Source: Psychrobacter cryohalolentis K5 (GTDB taxonomy: Bacteria; Pseudomonadota; Gammaproteobacteria; Pseudomonadales; Moraxellaceae). Taken from it: 32,000 nucleotides of DNA. This document shows, piece after piece, positions 3,464-26,992 of this stretch. The stretch is from contig NC_007969.1 of NCBI RefSeq assembly GCF_000013905.1, forward strand, positions 1,560,001-1,592,000, written 5' to 3'. A program made the position numbers and the translations under genes. A model generated the notes under the pieces. The model was given only the letters and a program-made list of their open reading frames with translations. It was not told where the DNA came from and did not search any database. Each line of letters begins with the position of its first letter. Within the stretch, counting starts at the first letter, position 1.

Positions 3464-3522
3464 GCCTAAAGCCTAAAGCCTAAAGCCTAAAGCCTAAAGC
3501 CTAAAGCCTAAAGCCTAAAGCC
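3464..3522. repeat. Perfect heptanucleotide tandem repeat (GCCTAAA)x8 plus a partial GCC
   Basis: Read directly: eight uninterrupted copies span 3464-3519, followed by GCC. The array lies between the stop codon of the minus-strand gene (3527-3529) and its terminator (3381-3421), so it is in that gene's 3' UTR. Confidence 0.97.
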
Positions 3523-3526
3523 GCTC

Positions 3527-5143
3527 TTACTCTATCTTCAACATCGATTTCGCCACAGCTTCGGCCACTTTAATGCCATCAATCCCTGCTGATAATATGC
3601 CACCTGCGTAACCAGCGCCTTCGCCAGCTGGGAATAAACCTTTGGTATTAATACTTTGAAATTCTTTATTGCGTTTAATACTTATTGGTGACGATGTTCT
3701 GGTTTCTACGCCAGTTAGTAGACCGTCGTCAGATGAAAATCCTTGGATTTTTTTATTAAACGCTGGAATGGCTTCACGTATGGCATCCACGGCAAAATCA
3801 GGTAATGCTTTGCTTAAGTCAGTTAAGGTAATGCCCGGTGTGTAAGACGGGTTGACATCACCTAACTCTGAATTTGGTTTACCTTTTAAGAAATCGCCAA
3901 TGGTTTGCGCTGGTGCATTGTAGTTTTTGCCGCCTAATTCAAACGCTAAGGTTTCTAGTTGTCTTTGTAATTCGATACCAGCAAGAGGGTGGTTTGGGTA
4001 ATCTCGCTCTGGGTCGATGCCGACAACAATAGCACTGTTGGCGTTACGCTCGTTCCTTGAATATTGGCTCATGCCGTTAGTGACAACACGGCCTTCTTCT
4101 GATGCTGCGGCAACAACGGTTCCGCCTGGACACATGCAGAAGCTATAAACAGAACGACCATTTTTACAATGATGAACCAGTTTGTAATCCGCAGCACCAA
4201 GTATTTCGTTTCCAGCATTGTCACCAAAGCGTGCTTGGTCTATGGTTGACTGTTTATGTTCAATCCTAAAGCCAATTGAAAAAGGTTTTGCTTCAACATA
4301 CACGCCTTTATCATAGATCATTTGGAAGGTATCACGGGCGCTATGACCAACAGCAAGAACAACATGGTTAGTTTTTAAGGTTTCGCCACTATTAAGTGTC
4401 ACGCCAGTTACTTTTGAGTCAGTTATATGTAAGTCGTCTACGCGAGTAGCAAAACGAATTTCGCCACCAAGTTCTATAATCTCGGCACGCATTTTTTCTA
4501 CCATGGTGACTAATTTATAAGTACCTATGTGCGGTTTACTGACAAATAAAATCTCCTCTGGTGCGCCAGCTTTTACAAATTCAGTCATGACTTTACGGCC
4601 ATAATGATTGGGATCTTTCACTTGGCTATATAATTTTCCATCGGAAAAGGTACCGGCGCCGCCTTCACCGAATTGTACGTTTGATTCTGTGTTTAATTTG
4701 CGCTGACGCCAAAAGCCAAAGGTGTCTTTGGTGCGTTGTCTGACTTCATTACCACGTTCAATGATAATAGGTTTAAAACCCATTTGGGCAAGGGTTAGTG
4801 CTGCTAATAAACCGCAAGGTCCAAAACCAATAACAACAGGACGCTCAGTTAAATCTTTTGGCGCTGCACCTACATATTTATAACTGGTATCTGGTGTTGC
4901 TTTAACATGGTTGTCTGACTCAAATCGAACCAATAAATCATTGGTTAAATTCGAGTCGGCCAGTGTGATGTCTAGCGTATAAATTAATTGGATATTTCTT
5001 TTATTACGAGCATCATAACCACGTTTAAACATCACAAATGACGCCATTTGCTCAGCAGAAATTTTAAGTTTTGTCGTTATAGCAGTCGTTAAATCTTCAG
5101 GTGCATGATTTAATGGCAATTTAATTTCAGTTAAACGTATCAT
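3527..5143 (-). CDS. NAD(P)/FAD-dependent oxidoreductase (COG2509-type uncharacterised FAD-dependent dehydrogenase)
   Basis: The 538-aa ORF has a Rossmann dinucleotide motif, VVIGFGPCGLLAALTLAQMG...IIERG. It also has GGAGTFSDGKL and a C-terminal GLFPAGEGAGYAGGILSAGIDG block typical of this family. Confidence 0.85.
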   Translation of the reverse strand: MIRLTEIKLPLNHAPEDLTTAITTKLKISAEQMASFVMFKRGYDARNKRNIQLIYTLDITLADSNLTNDLLVRFESDNHVKATPDTSYKYVGAAPKDLTERPVVIGFGPCGLLAALTLAQMGFKPIIIERGNEVRQRTKDTFGFWRQRKLNTESNVQFGEGGAGTFSDGKLYSQVKDPNHYGRKVMTEFVKAGAPEEILFVSKPHIGTYKLVTMVEKMRAEIIELGGEIRFATRVDDLHITDSKVTGVTLNSGETLKTNHVVLAVGHSARDTFQMIYDKGVYVEAKPFSIGFRIEHKQSTIDQARFGDNAGNEILGAADYKLVHHCKNGRSVYSFCMCPGGTVVAAASEEGRVVTNGMSQYSRNERNANSAIVVGIDPERDYPNHPLAGIELQRQLETLAFELGGKNYNAPAQTIGDFLKGKPNSELGDVNPSYTPGITLTDLSKALPDFAVDAIREAIPAFNKKIQGFSSDDGLLTGVETRTSSPISIKRNKEFQSINTKGLFPAGEGAGYAGGILSAGIDGIKVAEAVAKSMLKIE

Positions 5144-5758: not shown

Positions 5759-5834
5759 TGGTGCGCCCACAGGGACTCGAACCCCGATCGATCGCTTAGG
5801 AGGCAACTGCTCTATCCTGTTGAGCTATAGGCGC
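5759..5834 (-). tRNA. tRNA-Arg (anticodon CCU)
   Basis: The reverse complement GCGCCTA-TA-GCTC-AACAGGATA-GAGC-A-GTTGC-CTCCTAA-GCGAT-CGAT-CGGGG-TTCGAGT-CCCTG-TGGGCGC-A-CCA folds by hand into a 76-nt cloverleaf. It has a GTTCGAGT T-loop, an encoded CCA and anticodon CCT. The anticodon stem needs two G-U pairs. Confidence 0.85.
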
Positions 5835-7278: not shown

Positions 7279-7634
7279 TAAGAATTGAGGTAAAACGCAG
7301 CGACATCTATTGTCGCAGTGTGTTTTTATCGGTGGTTTATATGCTAGTAAACGTTGGCGAACAATGGCAAACTAATAGCCAGATTACTATTCGTCTTACA
7401 AGAGAGTCTGTAAGCGGATATACATGAGTGTTTACCAATGCAGTTTGATTTAACAGCGTCATGCTAGCAGAAATGTCATCCATTGACGACTGCTAAACAT
7501 GGATTGACAAGTATTGCCGCCTACAGCGTTGTTATTACACTCAAAATTTTACTATGAATGTTTGCGTGCTATCTCGAGCATGTATTCTTTATCAATTCCT
7601 TTATTCTCCTGCTACTTCAATCAGACGATTCTCT

Positions 7635-10600
7635 ATGTTTACCATTATACAATCCCATCGTACCGAAAATCTTGTTGATCAGCTTCTTGTGCAGTATCAG
7701 TCCAAAAGTCAGCCTGTTTTTGAGCCTTTTATTGTCATTGTGCCTTCAATGGTATTGGGTGATTGGTTGGATAAAACCATTGCCAGCCGTGCTGGTATTA
7801 GTACCTTGGTGCGTACTAAGTTTTGGGGACAGTATCAATGGACGCTGATGCAAGATGTATTGACTCGCCATAATGCGTACTTATTGGGGCAAAACCCTGA
7901 AGCGACAACTCTAAACGTGCCCGAAGTTGCGGTGTTGTCACCGACAGTAATGCAATGGCGATTGTTTGGGTATCTGACTTACTACCAAGAGTCGATTATT
8001 AAAGATGAAAAACATCCGGTGAATCCGCTGCTGGCGTCTTTGATTGATGAGCCACAAGCTGGAGTTGAGCAAGACAATGTACGACAAGATAAGTCGCAGC
8101 AAGATGCGCGTATTTGGCAGCTGTCAAATGATCTGGCGAGGGTGTTTAATCGCTATTTGACCCATCGTGAGGATTGGTTGGCATTATGGTCGCATAATAA
8201 ACCGCTGAATGTGAATGAGTTGATAGCGGATAAAGATGCCTTGTCACTGCGCTTTGATAAGTATGCGCGTGGCACGCCTGAGTGGTTAGTGGAGCATTAT
8301 GTTGAGTTAGAAGTTGCTCAACGCTTCTTATGGTCGCATTTATTTGCGGATGTGCATCAGCATCGTGTTGTATTGGAAGAGGTGTTTTGGCAAGCACTAA
8401 AGTCAAATAAGGCTGGCGAGCAAAGTCAGTTACCCAAAGTGCTGCGTATCTTTACCATCCAGCAACTACCACAGACCGAGCTAGATTTCCTACAGCGCCT
8501 GTCGCAATACATGAATATCACGCTATTGCATTACAATCCATCAAAGCTTTTTTGGGCCGATATCGTCGATAAATCATGGTTACAGCGTCAGCAGATTATC
8601 AATCCTGAAAGCGTGTTTCTGCGTGATTACGGCCACAGTTTGCTATCACGTTTGGGTAAGCAATCGCGTGATGCGTTTGCGATGCTGGCTAACTTGTCTG
8701 GTAATGAGCAGTACGACGATGCACTGGTTGAATGGCAAGATAATTTTGATGATACGCTGAGCATTGGTTCTAATCATAGGTTTGCTGCTGAGTATATCGA
8801 TGATGCTAGTAGCGCTCAGAATAGTCCAAGCTTACTTAGACGTTTGCAAAACGATGTGTTGATGCTTGATGAGCAATCTACCCAGCAAGCGACGGCTGCA
8901 AAAGTTTCGCAGGAGATGAGTAAGCAAATAGAGCTAGGCTTTGATCAAGAGCTGCATCAAACACCATGGTATGAAGATGAGGCATTAGAGAATAAGCGCT
9001 TTGAAAAAGACCGCTTTTGGGCAATGTCTGCGCAAGATAATAGCCTAAGCATCCATTCGTGCCATAGTTTACAGCGTCAGCTTGAAGTACTACGTATTAT
9101 GATTGGTCGTTGGCTAAATAAACCTATCAAGCCCGGTGAGAAAAAACGCCATATCTCCGACATTGTTGTGCTGCTACCTGACGTTGAGCGTCATCATGCA
9201 TTGATTGGCTCTATCTTCGTCAATGGTAAGGGTCAAGACGGTTTGACCTTGCCTGCGAAGGTAACTGGTGTTGTCGATGCCGACATTCGCCAGTTATGGG
9301 AAGCGATTATCGGTTTTTACAAACTATTGAGTAGCCATAGCGCCCGTTTTGAAGCAGCTGAAGTCTTAGATTGGCTCATGTTACCGCCTTTATTTGAAAG
9401 TTTTGGACTGACTCATGAGCAAATGAGCCGTGGTTGTGACTTGTTGGTAGAGGCGGGCTTCATTCGCGGTTTTGACGAGTTGCATCTTAAGCAAACTTTG
9501 GACAGTAACGATTACGACTATCGCTTTAGCTTTGCACAGGCATTAGATAGATTAACTTTAGGTCTAGTGATGCCAGAGGCTGAGCTAAGCAATTGTTTAT
9601 ATACTCTGAATGACGATGAATGGCCAAGTACAGCTTTACCAGAAATGACCTTACCGCTACCACAAGTGAGCCTAAATGATGCGCTGATTGTTGAAGCGCT
9701 TTGTCGTATTTATACTGGCTTGGTCGCACGACGTGATGATCATACACAAAAAAAGAAAGCAGAAGACTGGCTTGATCAGATTGAGACACAAGTCATTCAT
9801 CGTTACTTTGGCGATGTCGATCAAACACGCACCATGCGCGCCATCTATAATGCTATGAACGGCTTTAAATCAAGTTTACGAGCCAATCGCCATTATAGAC
9901 AGTATTCTAGTGGTGATAGCGCCAACAAAGAGGTAGAGCAAAGGCTGGCAGGTGTTGAGCAGTTACCGCTTAAACTAAGCTTTATGCTAGACAGTATCGA
10001 AGCAGAGCTTGAAAGCCAGCAGGTCAGTGCTGAGCCTACTGGTGTGATTACCTTTGGTAAATTTGGTGCATTAAGAAACGTGCCTTTTGAGTTGGTGGTG
10101 ATGCTTAATATGAACCTCTCTGAGTTTCCTGGGAGTGACCGTGATAACCGCTATGATTTGATGAAAGCGACCAATGCACGCCGCGGTGATAGAGTCAGCG
10201 AAGATGATGACAATGGCGCATTTTTAGATGCACTACTGTGCGCGCGCAGTGCTTGTTGGATGTTCTACAACGGCCAAAGCTTGACGGACACCCACGAGCA
10301 TCTGCCAGCCAATCCAGTGAGTGAGCTATTGCAGTTTTTGCAAGGCGAGGTGCAGTGGCAGGTGAACTCGCTGGAGACATTGCCTGAGAATATTGATCCC
10401 ACCACCGAGAGTCTCAAGCGTTATTTGCCTAAATTGATTAAGCAGTGGTTAGTAACTGAGCATCCTGCACTGCCTTTCCATGAGAGTCTGTTTGAAACGG
10501 CAATCGAAGGCGCTGATATTTTTGAGCAAGCGTCTACTAATCTTGTTGACAATGCCAACGTTAATATCAATGCTAAGGATTCTAGCCCTGTCGATATGAT

Positions 10601-12119
10601 TGATGAGCTGGATGCTATCTTAAATAAAGCCATGCGCAAAACCAAATTAGCGCAAAAAAAGCAGTTCCCGCCTGCGCCGCTTTGGCAAGCTGTGTTTGAT
10701 ACCTTGAAGGGTCGAGTATCTAGCGAGCATCCACAGCTAGTAGGCTTACCTACAAAAGGGCAATATGAATCTATTGCTCAGATTTTCGGTCAAGGTTTGG
10801 GGCAAATGGGACAAGTAGATAATCAAACATTCTCTGCATTGATTGAGATGCTAGCGCTAGATAATACTGCTGATGCCAGTGATAGTAGTGATATGAATGA
10901 GGCACTCATCAAGACCCTATTTGATACTATATTTAACATTGGAGAAATAGACGTTGAGGGAGTATTGGTCTATCAAGTGCGTCATCCTGCCAAAGCGTTT
11001 TTACGGTCTCAAAAAGTGCATGTAGTGCAAGGCGAGGAAGCGATGGCGCATCAAGAGCCACTGTTTCTAGACAGTTTGACCACCTATCAGATTAAAGAGC
11101 ATTTGATAAATGAATTGACCAACAATGCCACCAATAAGAATAGTGATGGGAAGGCTAAACAAGACAGTCAAATCTTGATGTATCAAAAAATCATGCCAGC
11201 CGGTGTGGCTCGCCAAACCACATTACCCAATCAACAAAAAAAACTGCAACAACAATGCTTGGAGTTCAAAGAGCAATTAATGGCTAATGGCTTTGATGAG
11301 AGCAGTATTCTCAACGAGAGTGGAGCAGATGTCGCTACAGTATTACAGCTATTGACGCCAACCGCCGAACATCCTGTTCAGATAGAACTAAAAAATATAC
11401 TGAGTAGTACTGACAACGAGTCAAGTAATCAGACGAATATAGAGGGTATAGAAACACTGTTTAAGCTGTTGCCGAAAGTCATTAAGATAAAGGGCTCAGT
11501 ACCAATATCAGCACCCATATCAGTTATTCAGGCAGGCGTGCCTTATGCTCAGCAATCGCCTAAGCAATGGTTAAATATACTGCCCAATTCTGCTAGCCCT
11601 AGGCATTTGCTCAAGTTTTGGTTATCACATTTGTATTGGCAAGTGGCCAGACGTACCACTGCCGAGCAAGTGGCATTAAATGATGGCGTAAGTATTTGGC
11701 GCTTCAATAAGGCCAGCTCACAAGTTGGTAACTATAAAGATGTAATCGCATTTAAACTAAGCCCAATTGTGTATGAAGACGCTGTGATTGAGCTGATAAA
11801 ATGGGCGTTTTTTGGCAAGTTAACGGGTCAAGTGCCTATTACATTACTGCCAGAATATGCACTTAATTACCTTGATAAGTATCTAAAGCCTGAAAAAGGT
11901 GACGATAATAGCTACTGGCCAAAACGTGCCGACTTCTCGGACTGGTTAAGACCTAACTACAATTCAGATACGGTATATGATACTTGTTCGCAGCATGCAA
12001 TTTGGCAATATGTACTGCGTGACCAAGATGCGTTTAAGGCTTTGTCAGCAGCTCTGACTACATTAGCGCAGCCACTGTATGAGCCGATGTTTAATGCGTT
12101 AACTAACTTAGATGGTTAG
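7635..12119 (+). CDS. recC: Exodeoxyribonuclease V gamma subunit RecC (expanded, about 1494 aa)
   Basis: The N-terminus MFTIIQSHRTENLVDQLL...FEPFIVIVPS aligns with E. coli MLRVYHSNRLDVLEAL...FEPEMILVQS. A conserved LSIHSCHSLQRQLEVL block is present, and recB and recD follow. I prefer ATG 7635 (Met28 of the tracked ORF) because it matches the homologue's start. ATG 7554 is not excluded. Confidence 0.93.
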   Translation: MFTIIQSHRTENLVDQLLVQYQSKSQPVFEPFIVIVPSMVLGDWLDKTIASRAGISTLVRTKFWGQYQWTLMQDVLTRHNAYLLGQNPEATTLNVPEVAVLSPTVMQWRLFGYLTYYQESIIKDEKHPVNPLLASLIDEPQAGVEQDNVRQDKSQQDARIWQLSNDLARVFNRYLTHREDWLALWSHNKPLNVNELIADKDALSLRFDKYARGTPEWLVEHYVELEVAQRFLWSHLFADVHQHRVVLEEVFWQALKSNKAGEQSQLPKVLRIFTIQQLPQTELDFLQRLSQYMNITLLHYNPSKLFWADIVDKSWLQRQQIINPESVFLRDYGHSLLSRLGKQSRDAFAMLANLSGNEQYDDALVEWQDNFDDTLSIGSNHRFAAEYIDDASSAQNSPSLLRRLQNDVLMLDEQSTQQATAAKVSQEMSKQIELGFDQELHQTPWYEDEALENKRFEKDRFWAMSAQDNSLSIHSCHSLQRQLEVLRIMIGRWLNKPIKPGEKKRHISDIVVLLPDVERHHALIGSIFVNGKGQDGLTLPAKVTGVVDADIRQLWEAIIGFYKLLSSHSARFEAAEVLDWLMLPPLFESFGLTHEQMSRGCDLLVEAGFIRGFDELHLKQTLDSNDYDYRFSFAQALDRLTLGLVMPEAELSNCLYTLNDDEWPSTALPEMTLPLPQVSLNDALIVEALCRIYTGLVARRDDHTQKKKAEDWLDQIETQVIHRYFGDVDQTRTMRAIYNAMNGFKSSLRANRHYRQYSSGDSANKEVEQRLAGVEQLPLKLSFMLDSIEAELESQQVSAEPTGVITFGKFGALRNVPFELVVMLNMNLSEFPGSDRDNRYDLMKATNARRGDRVSEDDDNGAFLDALLCARSACWMFYNGQSLTDTHEHLPANPVSELLQFLQGEVQWQVNSLETLPENIDPTTESLKRYLPKLIKQWLVTEHPALPFHESLFETAIEGADIFEQASTNLVDNANVNINAKDSSPVDMIDELDAILNKAMRKTKLAQKKQFPPAPLWQAVFDTLKGRVSSEHPQLVGLPTKGQYESIAQIFGQGLGQMGQVDNQTFSALIEMLALDNTADASDSSDMNEALIKTLFDTIFNIGEIDVEGVLVYQVRHPAKAFLRSQKVHVVQGEEAMAHQEPLFLDSLTTYQIKEHLINELTNNATNKNSDGKAKQDSQILMYQKIMPAGVARQTTLPNQQKKLQQQCLEFKEQLMANGFDESSILNESGADVATVLQLLTPTAEHPVQIELKNILSSTDNESSNQTNIEGIETLFKLLPKVIKIKGSVPISAPISVIQAGVPYAQQSPKQWLNILPNSASPRHLLKFWLSHLYWQVARRTTAEQVALNDGVSIWRFNKASSQVGNYKDVIAFKLSPIVYEDAVIELIKWAFFGKLTGQVPITLLPEYALNYLDKYLKPEKGDDNSYWPKRADFSDWLRPNYNSDTVYDTCSQHAIWQYVLRDQDAFKALSAALTTLAQPLYEPMFNALTNLDG
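9039..9050 (+). repeat. 12-mer AATAGCCTAAGC, copy 1 (in recC)
   Basis: Exact string read from the sequence. It is translated as N-S-L-S within DNSLSIHSCHS. Confidence 0.95.
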
Positions 12120-12195
12120 CTCATTATCTAAAGCAGCCCCTAATTAATTTTTGCTATCTTGTTTTAATAAATAATAATTAAAAGTATGCGCCCAT

Positions 12196-15100
12196 ATGAC
12201 AGACTTTACCGACCCAACCAATACTACTGACTCATTTACACAATCAGATTTATTTGATGAATATTCAGATGAGCTGACTTTATCTGCTGTGCCTGAACGT
12301 AAAAATGATGTTATACCGGCAGTCGATGTTGATCTGACGGGTAAACACCTGATTGAAGCCTCAGCGGGCACGGGTAAAACTTGGACGTTGACCGGTATTG
12401 TACTGCGCCTACTGATCGAAGCGCGACGTGCGCCAGAGCAAATCATTGCCACGACTTTTACTCGAGCTGCCGCTGCCGAAATGCGTCAGCGTATCCACGA
12501 TCGTTTGGTAGATTTTTATCAGCTATTACAATGGGTCAATAGCCTAAGTGCTGAACCCAATAACAAGGATGCTTTATATCCTGATGTACTACAGGTAATG
12601 CCTGAAAGTAATAAGGATAAACAAGCAGGTAAAGGTTCAAGCGTTGATTCAAATGCTGGGACAGGGATGGATGAGTTCAATAAAGACATTGCTGCTGATA
12701 GGCAAGCGGCGGCTGAGAAACGTAAACAAGTAAAAAAAGATCGTGAAAACTGGCTAGTTAATCAGGCTAAATATGCACGCTTAGACGCCGTTATGGACGA
12801 TCCCATTAATCTGCATTTGACTGGGTTTTTACTTGATCATGTCCACGGCTATCCAATGGCGGAGGCCATTCGACGCACTGCGCTAGTACTAACCACGTTG
12901 GATAAGCTGTTTGTAGGTACACTCGACAGTTTGGCGCAAAAGTGGTTGATTGAATACAGTAGCGAGACCGGTCATCAGCAAGGTATGGCTATTATTGAAG
13001 ACAGCAGTATTGAACAGGTGACTGACAGTATTATCCATGATGAGCTGCGTCAGTTTCAGAGCCGCTTATACTATGAGCAGCCTAAACTATATGCGCTAAT
13101 GGATCAGCAAGGCAAGCTGACTGCAGTTAGCGATCATAAAAAATATGTGACTCGTTCGCTTAAGTTTATTTCAGCGCCGATTGATGAGATAAAGCTGGAG
13201 CAAGGTTTTGACTTTGGTTTGTATGAGCGACTACTTAATGAGTTTGCTCAGTTAGATTTAGTAGATATCCAGCCTTATTTAAATCCTGATTATAGAAAGT
13301 CTCAAGGATTTCGTGGTGGTTCTAATTTAACCAAACAGTTTGATGCCATTATTGATGTGCATCAAAAGATATTAGAGTATCAGCTGACATTTAATAGCTA
13401 TTTAAATGAGAGCGAGAATAAGATTTTGACATCATTGCAAGATGCCAGATATCCAGATGAAGATGGCAAAATTAAGAACTTTAATAAGAATAAAGAAAAA
13501 GAGCATCAGACGCTTTTTGAGCTAGAAACCATTAGTAAGTTAATGGTTCTCTTAGATATGCTAGACAGTTTAAATCAGCATATATTGTTGGTATTAGCCA
13601 ACCTTAATCGCCATATCGTGCTTGCGGTACGTGACAGGCTACCAGTTATCTTAGAGGAGCGCGGTGAGACGACCTTTAGTTTACAAATGGTGCGCTTAAA
13701 CCAAGCATTGACTGGCCGCCAAGGAGATAAGCTGGCGCGTTATATTCGTCATCATTATCCTGTGGCATTGATTGACGAGTCGCAAGATATTAATGGCGAG
13801 CAAGCCATTATGATTGAAAGCATCTATTTGCCAAAGAATAAACGTAAGCAGTCGGACAGTGACAAGCAATCAACCACTAATAAAACCAGTCATGAGTTTC
13901 TGTTATTAGTGGGTGATCCAAAGCAGGCTATTTACGGGTTTCGTGGCGGTGATGTGGCCAACTACAACTATATGAAAGCCCAGTTTGAGAAAAGTAGCCT
14001 TTGGACGCTCGATATTAACCGTCGATCAAATGCTGGTGTGATTGATGCACTAAATTGCTGGTTTGGCATGCCAACGGAAACGGCTGCTGATAATAAATTA
14101 GCACAGCTAGGTAGCAGTATTTATTATCAGCATATCAAAGCTTCTAAACCAGAAAACCAGCTGTCTTGGTTTAATGAGCCAACTACTCAAAACAGTGCTT
14201 TAGTGACAGAAGTGCTTTCTGCTCAACCAGTGAGCTTGTTGCATCTACCTTATGATAAAGATAAAGAGCTTGAGTATGATGAGTTTGAAATCACCGCGCG
14301 TCATATTGCGACCTTGCTCAGTAGTAATCAGACCTTAAAAGGCAAACCGATTCAGCCTAGTGATATCGGTGTGCTGGCACGTACCAAAAAAGACTTAAAA
14401 CGGGTTGAGGATGAGCTGGTTAAGCTTAATGTACCGACCTTGACTACTAGTGATGTCAGTATCTTTGAAACCATCATGGCAGAAGATGTGGCGGCGCTGC
14501 TGAGTGCCATGCTATACCCATATCGTCATGACATGATCAATCGGGTGCTGACTAGCCATCTGTATGGCCTGAGTATCAAAGAAGTCAAAGCCATGATGAC
14601 TGACCATGAGTCAGGAGTGACAGAGGGTAGTTATTTAAGTAGCGCTAGTACGAAAGCAGTTAATAATAAAAAAAGCTATCAAGACTTTATTACCTACCTA
14701 AAACAAGCGGCTCAAAACTGGCAGCACTTTGGTGTTTTGTCAGCATTACATTACTTATTAGATAAAAACCCTGTGCAGCCGCAAGGCGTTTGGCAAGCTC
14801 TGGCAACTCATCCAGAAGGCGATCGTCACATTATGGATTTGCGTCATATGATGGATGTCTTGGCGCAGTATGGTATCGGCATGGGTGAGCACGAACTATT
14901 GGCGTGGTTTAGACAAAATATAGATGCTGCTCCTAGCAGTGATTGGGCTAAGCAATACCCGCTACCGACAGAGTCTGGCGTGCAGCTTATGACCATCCAC
15001 AAGTCCAAAGGGCTTGAGTTTCCCATTGTCTATGTATTGGGTATGGGCGATGCTAGTCGGAAGGCGGGCAATAATGAAAAGTTTGGGCTGTATCTATACA

Positions 15101-16650
15101 ACGCCCAGCAAGCTCCGTCGATTTTAATGCAGCAATCGGCAGAGAGTCAATCAACAGGCAACCAGCGCCGCTTCTCACCCGTAAGAGGCTCTGCCACCAC
15201 AGAAGATTGTTATACCGAAATCGAGACGAAAGAAGGCTTTGATGAGCTGCGACGGCTTGGCTATGTGGCATTTACGCGTGCCAGCGAGCAGCTTTATGTG
15301 GTGTTGCGAGATCCTAATAACAAAACAGGATTTGAGCTAAAGCCAGCGTTCTATTGGTTGGAATCACCAGAGGCAAAGTTTGATTTGCCTGATAGGCTCA
15401 AAGGCATCGTAGGTATGCTCAGAGGGCATAATGTCAATGAGTTCTATAATAATGACAGTAATGGTGCTAATGCATTGGGCTTAGCAGGTAACGCAACGCT
15501 TGCCACTGCTAAATCTATAACTGAGACTATTGAGTACGCGCCTTTTGCAGAAGTTATGAAAACCAATTATTTTTATGGTTGGGCCAAGACCAGTTTTACG
15601 GCTTTAGCCCGTCAGCTAGATGAATCTACGCAGGCGCTGGCTGTGGTAGATGAACGTATGGATGATGCCATAGACATTGATATGACAGAGTCGGTAGTAT
15701 CGTCCAGTAATAGTGGTTTTTTTAAACCAGTTAGTGAGTTGAGCCTCAAATCAGAGGATGATATCCGTTTTACTTTTGTCAAAGGCGCCAATGCCGGTAC
15801 GTTTTTGCATGAAATATTTGAAAAAATTGATTTCAATAATAAATCGCAGTGGTCTCAGGTGATTGATAGGGCCGTTAGTAGTTATCAGCTGCCTTTGGTT
15901 TATAGTAGTGCTGAACAGCAAAGTCGACTATTACAAGCAAATAATAGAGAAAATGGTCGTATACCTGACTTAGATTCAATGGATGCTACAAAGCATGAGG
16001 CATTACTTAACTGGTTTGAAGAGGTGCTAAAGGCGCCGTTATTAGCGTCCAATCAACCCTTACAGTCTATCAATGCAAGTCAACGGTTTGCTGAATTAGA
16101 GTTTAATATGGGGCTGTCAGAGCGCTTTAAGGCGCAAGATATTAATAGCCTATTTCAGCAGTATCTCCCGAATGAGGTGGACAAACACGTCAATCTTGTT
16201 CCACAAAACAAAACGCATTTGTATCGTTATCTGCGGGGTGAAATCGATTTGGTGTATGAGCATGCTGGCAAGTATTACGTTGTCGATTACAAAAGTAATT
16301 TTTTAGGTAATAGCCTAAGCGATTATGACGTAAGCACACTCAAACAAGCAATGTCAAAGGCAGGATATTGGTTACAAGCAGCGATTTATCAAGTCGCGTT
16401 ACATCGTTTCCTTGCAATGAGAATTAGTGATTATGCAGGTAATGAAGATAAGTATCTTGGCGCTGTTGAATATGTCTTTTTACGGGGCGTGTATGATCCA
16501 AATTCTCAAATAGCTGCTGATCTATTGCAAGATGTCAGAGAAGCTGATAATAGTCACTCAATGCCCAACGACCGCTATGGATTAGTCACGTGGGATATTC
16601 CAATTGAGTTCATTAAGGCCCTAGATGCGTTGTTTGGCCTGCCAGATTAG
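12196..16650 (+). CDS. recB: Exodeoxyribonuclease V beta subunit RecB (helicase-nuclease, expanded, 1484 aa)
   Basis: SF1 helicase motifs are present: IEASAGTGKTWTL, TFTRAAAAEMRQRI, ALIDESQD, LLVGDPKQAIYGFRGGD, MTIHKSKGLEFPIVYV and YVAFTRASEQLYVV. The C-terminal PD-(D/E)xK nuclease block is GEIDLVYEHAGKYYVVDYKSN. Confidence 0.96.
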   Translation: MTDFTDPTNTTDSFTQSDLFDEYSDELTLSAVPERKNDVIPAVDVDLTGKHLIEASAGTGKTWTLTGIVLRLLIEARRAPEQIIATTFTRAAAAEMRQRIHDRLVDFYQLLQWVNSLSAEPNNKDALYPDVLQVMPESNKDKQAGKGSSVDSNAGTGMDEFNKDIAADRQAAAEKRKQVKKDRENWLVNQAKYARLDAVMDDPINLHLTGFLLDHVHGYPMAEAIRRTALVLTTLDKLFVGTLDSLAQKWLIEYSSETGHQQGMAIIEDSSIEQVTDSIIHDELRQFQSRLYYEQPKLYALMDQQGKLTAVSDHKKYVTRSLKFISAPIDEIKLEQGFDFGLYERLLNEFAQLDLVDIQPYLNPDYRKSQGFRGGSNLTKQFDAIIDVHQKILEYQLTFNSYLNESENKILTSLQDARYPDEDGKIKNFNKNKEKEHQTLFELETISKLMVLLDMLDSLNQHILLVLANLNRHIVLAVRDRLPVILEERGETTFSLQMVRLNQALTGRQGDKLARYIRHHYPVALIDESQDINGEQAIMIESIYLPKNKRKQSDSDKQSTTNKTSHEFLLLVGDPKQAIYGFRGGDVANYNYMKAQFEKSSLWTLDINRRSNAGVIDALNCWFGMPTETAADNKLAQLGSSIYYQHIKASKPENQLSWFNEPTTQNSALVTEVLSAQPVSLLHLPYDKDKELEYDEFEITARHIATLLSSNQTLKGKPIQPSDIGVLARTKKDLKRVEDELVKLNVPTLTTSDVSIFETIMAEDVAALLSAMLYPYRHDMINRVLTSHLYGLSIKEVKAMMTDHESGVTEGSYLSSASTKAVNNKKSYQDFITYLKQAAQNWQHFGVLSALHYLLDKNPVQPQGVWQALATHPEGDRHIMDLRHMMDVLAQYGIGMGEHELLAWFRQNIDAAPSSDWAKQYPLPTESGVQLMTIHKSKGLEFPIVYVLGMGDASRKAGNNEKFGLYLYNAQQAPSILMQQSAESQSTGNQRRFSPVRGSATTEDCYTEIETKEGFDELRRLGYVAFTRASEQLYVVLRDPNNKTGFELKPAFYWLESPEAKFDLPDRLKGIVGMLRGHNVNEFYNNDSNGANALGLAGNATLATAKSITETIEYAPFAEVMKTNYFYGWAKTSFTALARQLDESTQALAVVDERMDDAIDIDMTESVVSSSNSGFFKPVSELSLKSEDDIRFTFVKGANAGTFLHEIFEKIDFNNKSQWSQVIDRAVSSYQLPLVYSSAEQQSRLLQANNRENGRIPDLDSMDATKHEALLNWFEEVLKAPLLASNQPLQSINASQRFAELEFNMGLSERFKAQDINSLFQQYLPNEVDKHVNLVPQNKTHLYRYLRGEIDLVYEHAGKYYVVDYKSNFLGNSLSDYDVSTLKQAMSKAGYWLQAAIYQVALHRFLAMRISDYAGNEDKYLGAVEYVFLRGVYDPNSQIAADLLQDVREADNSHSMPNDRYGLVTWDIPIEFIKALDALFGLPD
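12538..12549 (+). repeat. 12-mer variant AATAGCCTAAGT (11/12), in recB
   Basis: Read from the sequence. It is translated as N-S-L-S within WVNSLSAEP. Confidence 0.9.
16309..16320 (+). repeat. 12-mer AATAGCCTAAGC, copy 2 (in the recB nuclease domain)
   Basis: Exact string, translated as N-S-L-S within DYKSNFLGNSLSDY. Confidence 0.95.
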
Positions 16651-16726
16651 TGGGCCATAAATAGCGAATTAAATAAGAAAAAACCATGATAGCGACTAAC
16701 TGGATAAAAATAGAGACAAGCATACT

Positions 16727-18922
16727 ATGAGTAATAATAACAATAAGAGCAGAGCGGGCGTTAGCTTACAAGAAAGCTGGGCTAGTAACATCAGTGATTA
16801 TATATTGCTGCGCCGTCAGCAAACGCACTTAGCGTATAACGTCACTGAGGCAAAGGCTAATGCTGATAGTAAGCAAATCGATAAGACGGAACAAAATGGC
16901 TTATTTACTGCTTTATTCGTTATGTTGGCCACTCATTTAGAAGAGGGACATACTGTACTCACCATTGAGGCAGCTGAGCATGAACATCCAATACAAGGTC
17001 AAATCAATGGCGAGCTAGTCACCCTATATGCCTGGCAGCAGCAACTATTAGAGATGCTAGCAACACCAATCCTAGCACTGATTGACATTCAAACAGTTAC
17101 TCAGCAAGAGGATGATTCTACAGCTGGGTTATCATTATTTATCCTGCTAGACATCATGTTTGGTAAGCGAGCTCAGCTATGGGCACAGCTAGCACTCACC
17201 AATCGTGAAAAAGAGATACTCAGCAAACGCTTTGATGCGGTTGCTGCACTTTATCAGATAGTGAAAAACACGAATCTGAATTCCTTCATTCAGTCTATTC
17301 ATGAGCATACTTTGTTCGCTGACGCTAATTCTAACGTGAATAATAAAAATAGCCTAAGCAAAAATAATCAACCTATTGTGTATCAGCATATTAATGAACC
17401 AGAAGCTGATACACAAAATATTAAGATCACTTTTTGGTTACATCGAGCTTGGCAAGCAGAATTCAACTTAGCACAGCACATCAATACTATTTTGAACCAA
17501 CAGATAACCCCTTTAGAGATAGCGATACCGGAAAACCTACATGAGCAGCAGGTAATGGCTATTAATGTCGCTAATAACAATGCCTTTAGCATTATTACTG
17601 GTGGTCCCGGTACAGGGAAGACCTATACGGTTGCTCAATTAGTAATTGCTCTGCAACAAGCTGCAGAGAGTGGGGGTGATGAGCATGGAAAAATTCGGTT
17701 CAGTACAGACAGTGCCAGCCTAGCCTTAGCAGCACCGACTGGTAAGGCTGCCCAGCGAATGCAAGAGTCTTTGCAAGCGGCTCTAGATGGATCGAATGTA
17801 GAGCTACAACTGCAAGAAGCCAAGACCATTCATCGCTTATTAGGCATTGGTCGAACAGGTAGACCACGTTACAATGCAAATAATCCACTCGGCGAAGATA
17901 TTATCATTGTCGATGAGGCATCTATGTTGGGGGTGGAACTGGCTAATTACCTTGTAAGTGCGGTAAAACCGGGCGCAAGGCTTATATTGTTAGGAGATGC
18001 GAACCAGCTAGCCGCAGTAGATGCTGGGGCAGTATTGGCTGACTTATGCTGCATTCCATTGCTACAACCTATACATGCAAAGCTAACAGAGAGTCGCCGA
18101 TTTAGCGCAGACTCAGGGATTGGGAAGCTTGCCAATCAAATTAATAAGACAGAGGCAGATACTCAAGCTATTTGGCAGTTGTTAAGGCAGGACAAGGCAC
18201 TGAGTTTTCAATATGTAAATACGTTGCAAACAGAGATAGCTATAGATAATAAGATAAAAAATAGCCTAAGCAATTATAAAATTCTCTCGAACCTCACTTT
18301 AAGTTATCATCAATACCTGAATAGAGTTGAATCACTACTAAAGAATCCAATAGAAAAATCCGTGCCAGAATTAGTAAAAAGTACAATTACTTCATTAATG
18401 CAAACGTTTAATCAGTTTAGAGTCCTAAGTGCTGGTCATAATGGCGAGTGGGGTGATCACTACATTAATAATCATATCACTCAATGGCATCTTACTAAGC
18501 TAAAGCTACCGCTAGGTCAAAATACATGGTTTCATGGTCGTCCCGTTATGGTTTTACAAAACAACTATGAACTTGGATTATTTAATGGCGATATTGGTTT
18601 TTGCTTGCAAACAGGAGATGGAAGAAGCCGACTTGAGGTGTTCTTTGAGAATAAAGCACAGGGAATTGCTGTCAATCTGCTAAATGAAGACGTTATAGCC
18701 ACAGCATATGCAATGACCATTCATAAATCGCAGGGGTCTGAGTTTGATCATGTGGCCATTACTTTTGATAATAGTCATGCAAGGCTTTTGAGCAAAGAGC
18801 TTATTTATACGGCGGTAACCCGTGCTAAAAAACAGGTGACAATATATAGTACAAAACATGCTTTCGAAAAAGCCGTTCAGACACCGACTGAGCGCAATAC
18901 GGGTTTGGCATTGCAGTTTTAG
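16727..18922 (+). CDS. recD: Exodeoxyribonuclease V alpha subunit RecD (731 aa)
   Basis: SF1 helicase motifs are present: ITGGPGTGKTYTV, LAAPTGKAAQRM, IIIVDEASML, LILLGDANQLAAVDAG, MTIHKSQGSEFDHV and YTAVTRAKKQVTIY. Confidence 0.95.
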   Translation: MSNNNNKSRAGVSLQESWASNISDYILLRRQQTHLAYNVTEAKANADSKQIDKTEQNGLFTALFVMLATHLEEGHTVLTIEAAEHEHPIQGQINGELVTLYAWQQQLLEMLATPILALIDIQTVTQQEDDSTAGLSLFILLDIMFGKRAQLWAQLALTNREKEILSKRFDAVAALYQIVKNTNLNSFIQSIHEHTLFADANSNVNNKNSLSKNNQPIVYQHINEPEADTQNIKITFWLHRAWQAEFNLAQHINTILNQQITPLEIAIPENLHEQQVMAINVANNNAFSIITGGPGTGKTYTVAQLVIALQQAAESGGDEHGKIRFSTDSASLALAAPTGKAAQRMQESLQAALDGSNVELQLQEAKTIHRLLGIGRTGRPRYNANNPLGEDIIIVDEASMLGVELANYLVSAVKPGARLILLGDANQLAAVDAGAVLADLCCIPLLQPIHAKLTESRRFSADSGIGKLANQINKTEADTQAIWQLLRQDKALSFQYVNTLQTEIAIDNKIKNSLSNYKILSNLTLSYHQYLNRVESLLKNPIEKSVPELVKSTITSLMQTFNQFRVLSAGHNGEWGDHYINNHITQWHLTKLKLPLGQNTWFHGRPVMVLQNNYELGLFNGDIGFCLQTGDGRSRLEVFFENKAQGIAVNLLNEDVIATAYAMTIHKSQGSEFDHVAITFDNSHARLLSKELIYTAVTRAKKQVTIYSTKHAFEKAVQTPTERNTGLALQF
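17349..17360 (+). repeat. 12-mer AATAGCCTAAGC, copy 3 (in recD)
   Basis: Exact string, translated as N-S-L-S within NNKNSLSKNN. Confidence 0.95.
18260..18271 (+). repeat. 12-mer AATAGCCTAAGC, copy 4 (in recD)
   Basis: Exact string, translated as N-S-L-S within IKNSLSNYK. Confidence 0.95.
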
Positions 18923-25585: not shown

Positions 25586-26992
25586 TCAGTTATTAACCAA
25601 ACCGATTTTTCGAGCAGATAGGGCGGTTTGCCATTGCTGATAACGAACATGTTGTTTTTCTAAATTCGAGTCTGAACCAGCATTTAACACATCATTGCCC
25701 GTATTATGGTGCTCTGTCAGACTCAGGCTATTGTCCTCTAACAGTTGTACAATCAGTCCATGTTTGGCGTGATTGGCGATCTGATCAAGTTTACGCAATG
25801 TACCACGGTCAGGCAGCGCTTTAAAATGAATACCAAGCAATACCTGTACCGGATTTGCATCTAGGTAAGCCTTTAGCCGTGCCATATCTTCACGGTCATC
25901 AAGAATACCAAAATTCTCAATATCAGTCGTATCAGTAATGCCTGTAACGAAACCCGACTGCCACCATTGGTTTTGCTCCGCTGGATACTCTAATAGCGCA
26001 ACCAGTTTTTTGCCCGCACTGACTTGGGCTTTTGGGGCGATAGGCGCGGGGGCTTCTTTAAAGTCATCAGCATCCACCACATGACGCTGCCAAAAATTCA
26101 AAATCTTTTGATAATAAGGCAGCTTAATATCCAAACGCATCTTTTTACGACGGAACATCAAGGCACAAAATGCCCAAGCAATCGCGCGTGGGACAATCCC
26201 GTACATCAGTAAACTACCAACCAACAAGCCTGCCCATTGCCGTGCGACAGACAAAGGCATAGCATCAGTCACTAATCGGCTCTGTACGATAGCCGTACTG
26301 TCCGGAACATCGAATCCAACCATACTTGGTAACCATCCAAGTACTTGCGTCAAAGTAATTAGCGCCTGATCTGACAGCAGCGTTGACTCCCAGCTAAAGC
26401 TGTATTGACGCACAATCAACAGAAAAATAATCGCAAGCAGCATACCGGTCAGTGTGGCAAGCCATAACTGATGACTAAATCTGCCTAAATACCAACGCAT
26501 ACCGCTGTGTTGCAGCTGCCGCTCATATAAATTCACCGCTGCCTGAGTTACATCATCTTTACCACGTATCAAATAACTGGGACTGACAAAGCTGGCAAAC
26601 CAATTTGAAGACTGCTTGCCTTGATTGATAAGCGTCATGACTAGCCAGCCCAGAAGCATAAGACTATGAAAACCCAATAAGCATACCAAGACGTAAAAGA
26701 AGTTCACCACATTGGTCTGCAATAAGGTAAATAATCCCAAAAATCCTGAGAGACACCAAATCACGCTCATGACAACCATGATGCCTTTGATGCGACCATC
26801 AATCTTACCAAGCACGCCTGCCAGCGCGCCATTGCTGTCTATTCGTGACGCTCGTCGATGCAGTTTTTGCAGTGGCGAACCTTCTTCATTTTGCAGCTTT
26901 TCAGTAATGAGTAGCGGGTCAGTAGCAAAGACGTGCTGCTGCGTCTCAAGAGTACGTACCAGCTCAGTCAATTGGTCTTGGGGCGATAGCAT
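25586..26992 (-). CDS. Polytopic membrane protein (DUF2868-like), upstream partner of the GTPase
   Basis: The 468-aa ORF has several predicted TM helices (IMVVMSVIWCLSGFLGLFTLL, FFYVLVCLLGFHSLMLLGWLVMTL, LWLATLTGMLLAIIFLLIV, WAGLLVGSLLMYGIVPRAIAWAFCALMF). A soluble C-terminal half follows. It is on the same strand as the GTPase gene, 113 bp upstream. The family name is from memory. Confidence 0.75.
   Translation of the reverse strand: MLSPQDQLTELVRTLETQQHVFATDPLLITEKLQNEEGSPLQKLHRRASRIDSNGALAGVLGKIDGRIKGIMVVMSVIWCLSGFLGLFTLLQTNVVNFFYVLVCLLGFHSLMLLGWLVMTLINQGKQSSNWFASFVSPSYLIRGKDDVTQAAVNLYERQLQHSGMRWYLGRFSHQLWLATLTGMLLAIIFLLIVRQYSFSWESTLLSDQALITLTQVLGWLPSMVGFDVPDSTAIVQSRLVTDAMPLSVARQWAGLLVGSLLMYGIVPRAIAWAFCALMFRRKKMRLDIKLPYYQKILNFWQRHVVDADDFKEAPAPIAPKAQVSAGKKLVALLEYPAEQNQWWQSGFVTGITDTTDIENFGILDDREDMARLKAYLDANPVQVLLGIHFKALPDRGTLRKLDQIANHAKHGLIVQLLEDNSLSLTEHHNTGNDVLNAGSDSNLEKQHVRYQQWQTALSARKIGLVNN

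Follow-up and report, generated by a model that had tools for sequence, protein, structure and literature searches.

Seed matches of small RNAs (sRNAs) located inside coding sequences exist, for example those of the MicC-ompD type. In the systems based on CsrA/CsrB, on Hfq-Crc/CrcZ in Pseudomonas and on Hfq and recB in Escherichia coli (PMC12342828), a short word is repeated in the target transcripts. RecB is limited in E. coli by an Hfq-dependent post-transcriptional mechanism (PMC12342828), and A-rich (AAN) Hfq distal-face motifs have been cited for sRNAs of Acinetobacter baumannii and Pseudomonas aeruginosa (PMC12802169). Here we describe a word of 12–13 bases, (A)AATAGCCTAAGY, which is repeated in the recC, recB and recD genes of Psychrobacter cryohalolentis K5, in a stretch of 32,000 nucleotides (contig NC_007969.1, positions 1,560,001 to 1,592,000), hereafter called the window. 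The element proved real and is under strong selection, and it seems not to have been described before; it bears on the control of the level of RecBCD, which is an open question outside E. coli.

The word in the recBCD operon of P. cryohalolentis

The recC, recB and recD genes form a single operon on the + strand (7554–18922 of the window). The host genes and the copies of the word that they carry are as follows (aa, amino acids; ORF, open reading frame):

7554..12119, + strand: recC, host gene, ORF of 1521 aa, with Pfam RecC_N and RecC_C in the source record and 298 residues identical to E. coli RecC
12196..16650, + strand: recB, host gene, 1484 aa
16727..18922, + strand: recD, host gene, 731 aa
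9039..9050, + strand: copy in recC, codons 496–499 (N-S-L-S), exact in the window; at most one mismatch in 73 of 75 Psychrobacter species, exact in 60
12538..12549, + strand: weaker or decaying site AATAGCCTAAGT in the recB N-terminal insert (recB-115); at most one mismatch in 38 of 75 species
16309..16320, + strand: copy in the recB nuclease domain, codons 1372–1375; at most one mismatch in 75 of 75 species, exact in 65, with CTA in 100%
17348..17359, + strand: copy in recD, codons 208–211, in a variable Asn/Lys-rich insert; at most one mismatch in 74 of 75 species
18260..18271, + strand: copy in recD, codons 512–515, in a second variable insert; at most one mismatch in 75 of 75 species

The exact word AATAGCCTAAGC occurs at 9039, 16309, 17348 and 18260, always on the + strand, and on neither strand of the 20.7 kb of the window lying outside the operon. 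The four exact copies listed in a first-pass annotation of this DNA were therefore all recovered, the third of them at 17348 and not at 17349, as was its 11/12 copy in recB at 12538. When one mismatch is allowed, 12538 and 11554 are added, giving six matches as against the 0.26 expected from shuffled sequences, which agrees with the earlier view that the word is present beyond chance. The copies are not embedded in longer repeats. The five best ones are all spelled AAT-AGC-CTA-AGY and read N-S-L-S, as had been noted, and the chance of this spelling amounts to about 0.005 per NSLS with the window's own codon usage; a sixth NSLS, outside recBCD (25586–26992), is spelled AATAGCCTGAGT. Because its other two sense frames contain stops, TAA in +1 and TAG in +2, the word can be read within a gene only as N-S-L-S, which accounts for the uniform frame of the copies.

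The division of these copies into two lying in conserved blocks and three lying in inserts was also borne out. The recC-496 site belongs to a block aligning without gaps to DSSITFHVCHS of E. coli and the recB-1372 site to one aligning without gaps to LGEDSSAY, while recB-115, recD-208 and recD-512 are hosted by lineage-specific inserts. At recD-208, the surrounding codons are variable, with indels, and the segment is missing from E. coli RecD. Two other proposals did not hold. None of the supposed degenerate relatives at 11554, 9584, 14947, 18424 and 16144 is kept as the word among the 75 species; they are ordinary coding sequence. The tally given for an enrichment of AGCCTAA also takes in an unrelated heptamer array (3464–3522). 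This array is a perfect microsatellite, (GCCTAAA) × 8.4, located between convergent genes, directly 3' of the gene of a FAD-dependent protein (3527–5143, − strand); it has GCCTAA in common with the word and could be a length-variable tract. The link once suggested between the array and the word found no support: in the other 74 species, whose flanks were counted without inspecting the array position itself, AGCCTAA is about as frequent as a Markov model predicts.

Conservation of the word in Psychrobacter

The Psychrobacter sample was obtained by a RecB-guided scan with one genome per species, which yielded 80 loci (RecB 64–83% identical), and the 75 complete operons among them were aligned by codon. 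All copy counts cover recBCD loci, their flanks and the metagenome and cluster loci described below, not complete genomes. The 80 loci contain 264 exact sense-strand copies, all within recC, recB or recD, and no exact antisense copy. No exact copy was found in the 948,531 nt flanking the 75 complete operons; as the flanks of different species are orthologous to one another, they amount to less than 949 kb of independent sequence. Each of the 75 species carries 3–5 copies of AATAGCCTAAGY per operon. The element is thus restricted to the sense strand in recBCD. The copy number per operon is maintained while, as seen in Moraxella (below), the positions turn over.

The four main sites are occupied with at most one mismatch in 73–75 of the 75 species, and they are the top-ranked four-codon windows of their genes when windows are ranked by conservation. 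Among the windows with at least 100 synonymous spellings (n = 510), ranks 1–6 are all held by motif windows. The alignment of orthologous operons, which had been proposed as a check, showed that the nucleotides are kept beyond what the amino acids require: the motif Leu is CTA in 92–100% of the species (a share of 0.92–1.00), and none of 325 conserved Leu control columns reaches a modal-codon share of 0.95. The codons adjoining the four sites change freely, with indels in recD. Within the word, the variation consists almost only of a change from C to T at position 12, which is the sole variation at recD-512 among the 75 species, so that the core can be written as AATAGCCTAAG then Y.

The recB-115 site behaves differently. 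In the species in which the word is not kept there, N-[SN]-L-S is retained but spelled AAC AGT TTA AGT, AAT AAC CTG AGT and so on, and this site is an internal control for conservation at the level of the protein only. In the word itself, it is the nucleotides that are under selection.

RecBCD in Moraxella and Acinetobacter

A first search for homologues of RecD returned only Psychrobacter, and the recBCD genes of Moraxella and Acinetobacter were reached via a library of representatives at 50% identity together with cluster look-ups. Moraxella osloensis and two Moraxella-like contigs carry 3–4 sense copies each across recC, recB and recD, and no copies in the flanks of these loci. Several of the copies stand at positions non-homologous to the Psychrobacter sites, including the recC/recB junction. 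In the two Moraxella-like genomes, the word overlaps the stop codon of recC (L242 5155–5166; L244 4932–4943), in one case via TAA and in the other via TAG. Locus L244 has four sense copies, one of them at aa 582 of recB, a position unseen in other operons, although the GC skew of its recBCD sense strand is negative, and the orientation of the word therefore follows the gene and not replication. The window matches Psychrobacter chromosome CP022043.2 at about 257–289 kb; the chromosomal position of the operon, about 0.26 of 3.07 Mb in the source genome, differs from that in M. osloensis, 1.28 of 2.45 Mb. No copy of the word was found in the recBCD genes of Acinetobacter, and the NSLS of Acinetobacter wuhouensis RecD is spelled AAT TCA CTA TCT.

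The proteins themselves are unusually long. In P. cryohalolentis, RecC (1521 aa), RecB (1484 aa) and RecD (731 aa) exceed the E. coli lengths (1122, 1180 and 608 aa) by 20–36%, and the additional length (window 7554–18922) comes from lineage-specific inserts, which are partly Asn/Lys-rich. In Psychrobacter and Moraxella as compared with E. coli, RecB and RecC are about 300–400 aa longer and RecD about 50–120 aa longer; the long RecC and RecB are thus also present in Moraxella, and the Acinetobacter subunits are shorter (about 1236–1276, 1263–1335 and 600 aa for RecC, RecB and RecD). The start of recC differs between the NCBI gene call (1494 aa) and the longest ATG ORF (1521 aa; window 7554 versus L001 909). 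Some RecD proteins clustering with that of M. osloensis carry the NCBI labels Streptomyces cinereus and Leucothrix sargassi (P0429, P0452), which probably reflects contaminated assemblies.

Copies outside recBCD

A scan of the collection with the 12-mer gave at least 120 matches, those listed being mostly chance ones in viral contigs. A scan of metagenomes for two copies 45–75 nt apart yielded 37 loci: two were recBCD, a few were unrelated tandem repeats, and the rest formed conserved classes, whose loci were assigned to genera by exact protein look-up. In Psychrobacter, a trmB-like gene is followed by two copies, ahead of the terminator of a convergent ubiB-like gene. In Acinetobacter, a LysR or IclR gene has three intergenic copies beside its 3' end, in an orthologous cluster kept across species. 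In M. osloensis, yejF carries two in-frame copies, one in a conserved block and the other in an indel-rich insert. In every class of cluster, the word is the only part conserved between species; the copies are direct repeats 31–86 bp apart, and the spacers are not conserved. Beyond the ascertained clusters, about 250 kb of other Moraxellaceae loci held only two more distinct single copies, one of them orthologous in L203 and L226 and the other at position 4764 of L207. The first-pass statement that the word is found only in recBCD consequently holds for the window, where there is none elsewhere, and fails at the level of the family, given the Acinetobacter, Moraxella yejF and Psychrobacter trmB-like clusters. 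The word is invariant across Acinetobacter, Moraxella and Psychrobacter while the host loci differ. The frozen codons and the intergenic copies together lend strong support to the proposal that it is a signal at the level of DNA or RNA and not a protein motif.

Copies free of coding constraint extend the consensus to AAATAGCCTAAGCAa, and their flanks are A-rich, with A at −1 in 97% of the copies and at +12 in 82%; the context in recD is AAA AAT AGC CTA AGC AAA. The coding copies, which occupy at least 12 non-homologous positions (recC, recB and recD of Psychrobacter and Moraxella, yejF twice, an Acinetobacter ORF and a phage-like primase), are all in the sense orientation. The antisense word offers two open frames as against one for the sense word, so that an orientation-neutral element should be mostly antisense.

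Several of these loci deserve a description of their own. The TAG of the word ends the trmB-like gene in Psychrobacter (L221 4064–4075), and the antisense TAG of the word ends the LysR gene in Acinetobacter (L220 2701–2712). The IMG/VR contig UViG 2554235076_000003 (L013), a phage- or plasmid-like contig with 39% GC which encodes ParA, a DNA ligase, a primase and a DnaB-type helicase, has two sense copies at 4893 and 10459, one in the primase-like gene (GIGG-NSLS-NKE) and one over the stop of a nucleotide-kinase-like gene. In the A. baumannii-group contig L207 (4590–4775), a strong hairpin resembling a terminator (AGGCTCAT...ATGGGCCT, then a T run) precedes the single copy, AATAGCCTAAGT, by about 30 nt, and a lipoprotein gene follows about 100 nt downstream; a small transcript may end here. 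A 73-kb "viral" metagenome contig (L078 9200–9400) has a repeat family of its own which contains the word, beside telomere-like (GGGTGT)n tracts; this family is probably unrelated to the Moraxellaceae element.

The neighboring genes of unknown function gave no family hits. No Rfam family matched at ten cluster loci, and in the window the sole match to Rfam 15 at gathering score is a tRNA gene (5762–5834, − strand), which sets aside the known RNA families. In the searchable literature, the word was absent apart from a listing in A. baumannii, where "AAATAGCCTAAGC" is given as a spurious two-repeat CRISPR (PMC8891609). This false CRISPR of the A. baumannii group is accounted for by the Acinetobacter three-copy cluster. 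Judged by its repeats, cas genes not having been looked at, a true array can be rejected: the repeat has 12–13 nt and 2–3 copies, as against the 23–50 nt, with spacers of similar size, expected of a CRISPR, and the cluster is orthologous across Acinetobacter species.

A possible recognition site in the transcript

The word is invariant and strand-specific, and its number is kept while its hosts differ, which argues for a recognition site of a conserved trans-acting factor with genus-variable targets. All the coding copies are sense despite the larger number of antisense open frames, and the orientation in recBCD tracks transcription, which would place the recognition in the transcript. We tentatively favor, at somewhat less than an even chance, the reading that (A)AATAGCCTAAGY is a strand-specific cis-acting word which a trans-acting factor, conserved throughout Moraxellaceae, reads in the transcript (mRNA or nascent RNA). 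What we infer from these patterns is the RNA level, the factor's identity and the direction of the regulation. Of the explanations offered at the first pass, the evidence favors the one in which a single trans-acting RNA or RNase acts on the three cistrons via a site common to them, although no partner was found.

The leading candidates, given the A-rich flanks and the precedent of Hfq-limited RecB in E. coli, are an Hfq-assisted sRNA and an RNA-binding protein. The former would have the seed CUUAGGCUAUU, and its gene would be a conserved intergenic CTTAGGCTATT beside a promoter and a terminator; the latter would be sequence-specific and would read the oligo form AAAUAGCCUAAGCAA. With 3–5 copies over recC, recB and recD, all three cistrons would come under one post-transcriptional control in Psychrobacter and Moraxella, which most plausibly would limit or co-ordinate RecBCD synthesis. 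Being readable only as N-S-L-S, the word would sit in tolerant loops or in Asn/Lys-rich inserts. The non-coding clusters of 2–3 copies, like those in yejF and in other genes, would serve this factor as additional targets or as decoys, and the factor would tune recBCD together with a small, genus-variable set of other transcripts. Some features expected of sRNA targets were observed: all the coding copies lie on the transcribed sense strand, the Acinetobacter intergenic cluster being the exception, and an A-rich motif (ARN/AAN) adjoins the word, in agreement with the AAN motifs of the Hfq distal face. As regards decoy RNAs, non-coding clusters of 2–3 copies in which only the word is conserved do exist; the promoter and terminator scans were uninformative and there was no Rfam match.

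Several points weigh against recognition in the transcript. No complementary RNA or binding protein was found, and about 2 Mb of Psychrobacter and Moraxella loci contain no antisense copy. The complement of the word occurs only as 8-nt fragments in the Psychrobacter recBCD loci examined, within ordinary coding or terminator sequence; the 16S, 23S and 5S rRNAs of E. coli gave no 11–12-nt match, nor did the few tRNAs present in the fetched loci, which were uninformative. The predicted accessibility of the sites is only moderately high (mean percentile 0.66), and for recB-1372 pairing is often predicted. The substitution spectrum does not separate wobble tolerance from synonymous constraint, and the copy counts, resting on loci and flanks rather than on complete genomes, do not fix the number of copies per genome. 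The Acinetobacter three-copy cluster is antisense to both of its neighbors (nuclease and LysR) in most species and would therefore need a transcript of its own, which was not revealed by promoter and terminator scans at this cluster, the scans being uninformative. To our knowledge, multiple invariant 11–13-nt sites inside coding sequence have no close precedent in the regulons of sRNAs or RNA-binding proteins.

A number of more specific identifications were tried and rejected. The A. baumannii sRNA99/ABUWs076, an Hfq hub with three A-rich motifs, is not the cluster, since its probe sequence is absent from the fetched A. baumannii loci. The motif of the DNA-damage regulator DdaA (WYL), CGWCA-N5-TGWCG, is unrelated to the word. 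The context required for a −1 frameshift on A-AAA-AAT is found in some recD copies only, the flanks are inconsistent with an internal Shine-Dalgarno sequence or a promoter −10 element, and nothing is conserved downstream of CC, as a partial target of CRISPR/Cascade would require. The antisense likeness to the Ty1 heptamer CUU-AGG-C and the likeness of the word to the resume region of tmRNA were treated as coincidences.

More speculatively, and with somewhat less confidence than we attach to a site read in the transcript, Moraxellaceae might have a regulator not described so far, a protein or a guide RNA, which recognizes a specific 11–13-nt word that is invariant across Acinetobacter, Moraxella and Psychrobacter. 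Codons would have been frozen by selection so as to accommodate the word in essential coding sequence, Asn/Lys-rich loop insertions might have been favored mainly because they carry the word, and the architecture of RecB, RecC, RecD and YejF might have been shaped in part by a nucleic-acid signal. The case is an unusually clear one of a nucleic-acid signal constraining protein sequence, codon choice and, apparently, the content of inserts. This has consequences for dN/dS analyses, for the codon-optimized expression of these genes and for annotation, where the word already produces false CRISPR calls in A. baumannii. If the word is the recognition site of a trans-acting factor, it provides a direct handle on an unknown regulatory system in a family which includes A. 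baumannii and the Moraxella pathogens.

Alternative explanations

The restriction to the sense strand fits equally well with a transcription-elongation signal in the non-template DNA or the nascent RNA, resembling ops, boxA or a pause site, which would recruit or halt a factor on RNA polymerase. Such a signal might modulate Rho-dependent polarity or attenuation in the 11-kb, weakly expressed recBCD operon, and might help to end transcription between convergent genes devoid of hairpin terminators. It would have 12–13 nt on the sense (non-template) strand of a long operon, as ops has; the copies are spread along the entire operon, and several clusters lie at gene 3' ends without any visible intrinsic terminator on the + strand (the trmB-like gene in Psychrobacter, an MBL hydrolase gene in A. 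baumannii). With the ops consensus GGCGGTAGnnTG, however, the word has no more than TAGC in common, and it shows no similarity to boxA; the copies occupy coding sequence or 3' regions, not the 5' leader; the roles inside the operon and at 3' ends would need opposite effects or one common "pause" logic; and the Acinetobacter cluster is antisense to its neighbors. We regard this explanation as unlikely, though worth keeping in view.

Slightly less likely again, but likewise worth keeping in view, is recognition of the word as duplex DNA by a conserved protein that binds a specific sequence. This might serve as a roadblock, in nucleoid or chromosome organization, or as a recombination hotspot for the unusually large RecBCD, and high occupancy would be ensured by the clusters. 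The word is on the G-rich strand in 80 of the 80 Psychrobacter recBCD loci and in about 30 of the 33 non-recBCD loci, including the Acinetobacter cluster, the neighbors of which are on the other strand. Direct repeats 31–86 bp apart with non-conserved spacers look like arrays of binding sites, and some copies are upstream of a nuclease gene. A strict sense orientation in every coding host would nevertheless be unexpected for a duplex site; in addition, the sense copies of L244 lie on a strand with negative skew, the chromosomal position of the operon is not conserved, and the word is non-palindromic. It is also too rare for a general Chi. The Chi-like element put forward at the first pass is refuted as a general Chi by the empty flanks, by the presence on one strand only, by the absence from Acinetobacter recBCD and by the L244 copies, and a Chi core, like an uptake-type word, is rejected because the subwords of 6–10 nt all occur in the flanks in Markov-expected numbers without strand skew. 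A published paper on the evolution of Chi does not cover Moraxellaceae.

The word could also be the footprint of a repeated in-frame insertion, or of a small mobile element resembling the Rickettsia palindromic element, which lengthened recB, recC, recD and yejF. Most of the copies are indeed located in lineage-specific, low-complexity, indel-rich inserts, and the subunits are long in Psychrobacter and Moraxella, and shorter and without the word in Acinetobacter. This idea, the insertion scar of the first-pass annotation, is highly improbable, because only 12–13 nt are conserved, with no common flanks, inverted repeats or target duplications, and two sites arose without insertion, in blocks which align to E. 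coli. A scar should decay at synonymous sites as recB-115 does, whereas the main sites are held genus-wide, and there are non-coding copies.

Even less probable is a DNA uptake signal, or an over-represented genomic word, enriched in the genome-maintenance genes of naturally transformable Moraxellaceae, as had likewise been suggested. The family is naturally competent, the word has 12 nt, as has the DNA uptake sequence (DUS) of Neisseria, it is located in repair genes, and some intergenic copies lie between convergent genes. These likenesses are set against the absence of any copy from the recBCD flanks of the 75 species and from the rest of the window, the subwords at Markov expectation, the 264 sense copies versus no antisense copy and the scarcity of single copies in other Moraxellaceae loci. 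Lastly, the idea that N-S-L-S is a protein-level motif with an incidental nucleotide identity is practically negligible, since, although conservation of the peptide reaches about 100% at the four sites, its codons are frozen despite 432 synonymous spellings, the same peptide is spelled otherwise at recB-115 in many species, in A. wuhouensis RecD and at 25586–26992 in the window, and many copies are non-coding or lie over stop codons.

Comparison with known systems

The Rickettsia palindromic element inserts each time as a whole element of about 100 nt or longer, and the copies of the word share only 12–13 nt. The likeness to DUS and to the uptake signal sequence (USS) of Pasteurellaceae consists of a 12-nt word found family-wide in naturally competent bacteria, in genome-maintenance genes, with coding copies forced into particular peptides. 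DUS and USS nevertheless number hundreds to thousands per genome (about 1 per kb), far more than composition predicts, and DNA bearing them is preferred in uptake, whereas the word, in the loci examined, is orders of magnitude rarer, has one orientation and forms locus-specific clusters. DUS and USS occur in both orientations, in Neisseria often with inverted pairs serving as terminators, while the clusters of the word are all direct repeats. With Chi, the word has in common its polarity, the link with RecBCD and the location mostly on the G-rich strand. Chi, which switches RecBCD from degradation to the loading of RecA, is found about once per 5 kb, is over-represented and has a leading-strand skew genome-wide, whereas the word is neither frequent nor over-represented, is missing from the flanks and from Acinetobacter recBCD, and is longer than any known Chi.

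The ops element of RfaH is, like the word, a 12-nt strand-specific element tied to long operons; the word differs from it in sequence, is located outside the leader, has many copies and is also present in 3' intergenic clusters. In comparison with sRNA seed matches of the MicC-ompD type, the length of 11–12 nt is typical of seed pairing, the sense strand alone is involved and the flanks are A-rich and of the Hfq type; what differs is the occurrence of several identical sites per operon, family-wide, and the lack of a complementary sRNA in any fetched DNA.

As compared with the Csr- and Crc-type systems, finally, in which the known words have 3–8 nt, are degenerate and are mostly placed near ribosome-binding sites, the present word has 11–13 nt, is invariant and lies mostly deep in coding sequence. 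Like those systems, it combines repetition in the target transcripts with clusters in short non-coding stretches, which are possible decoys, and with an A-rich context; the members of the regulon vary by genus while the word stays constant, and one of its hosts, RecB, is known to be limited post-transcriptionally.

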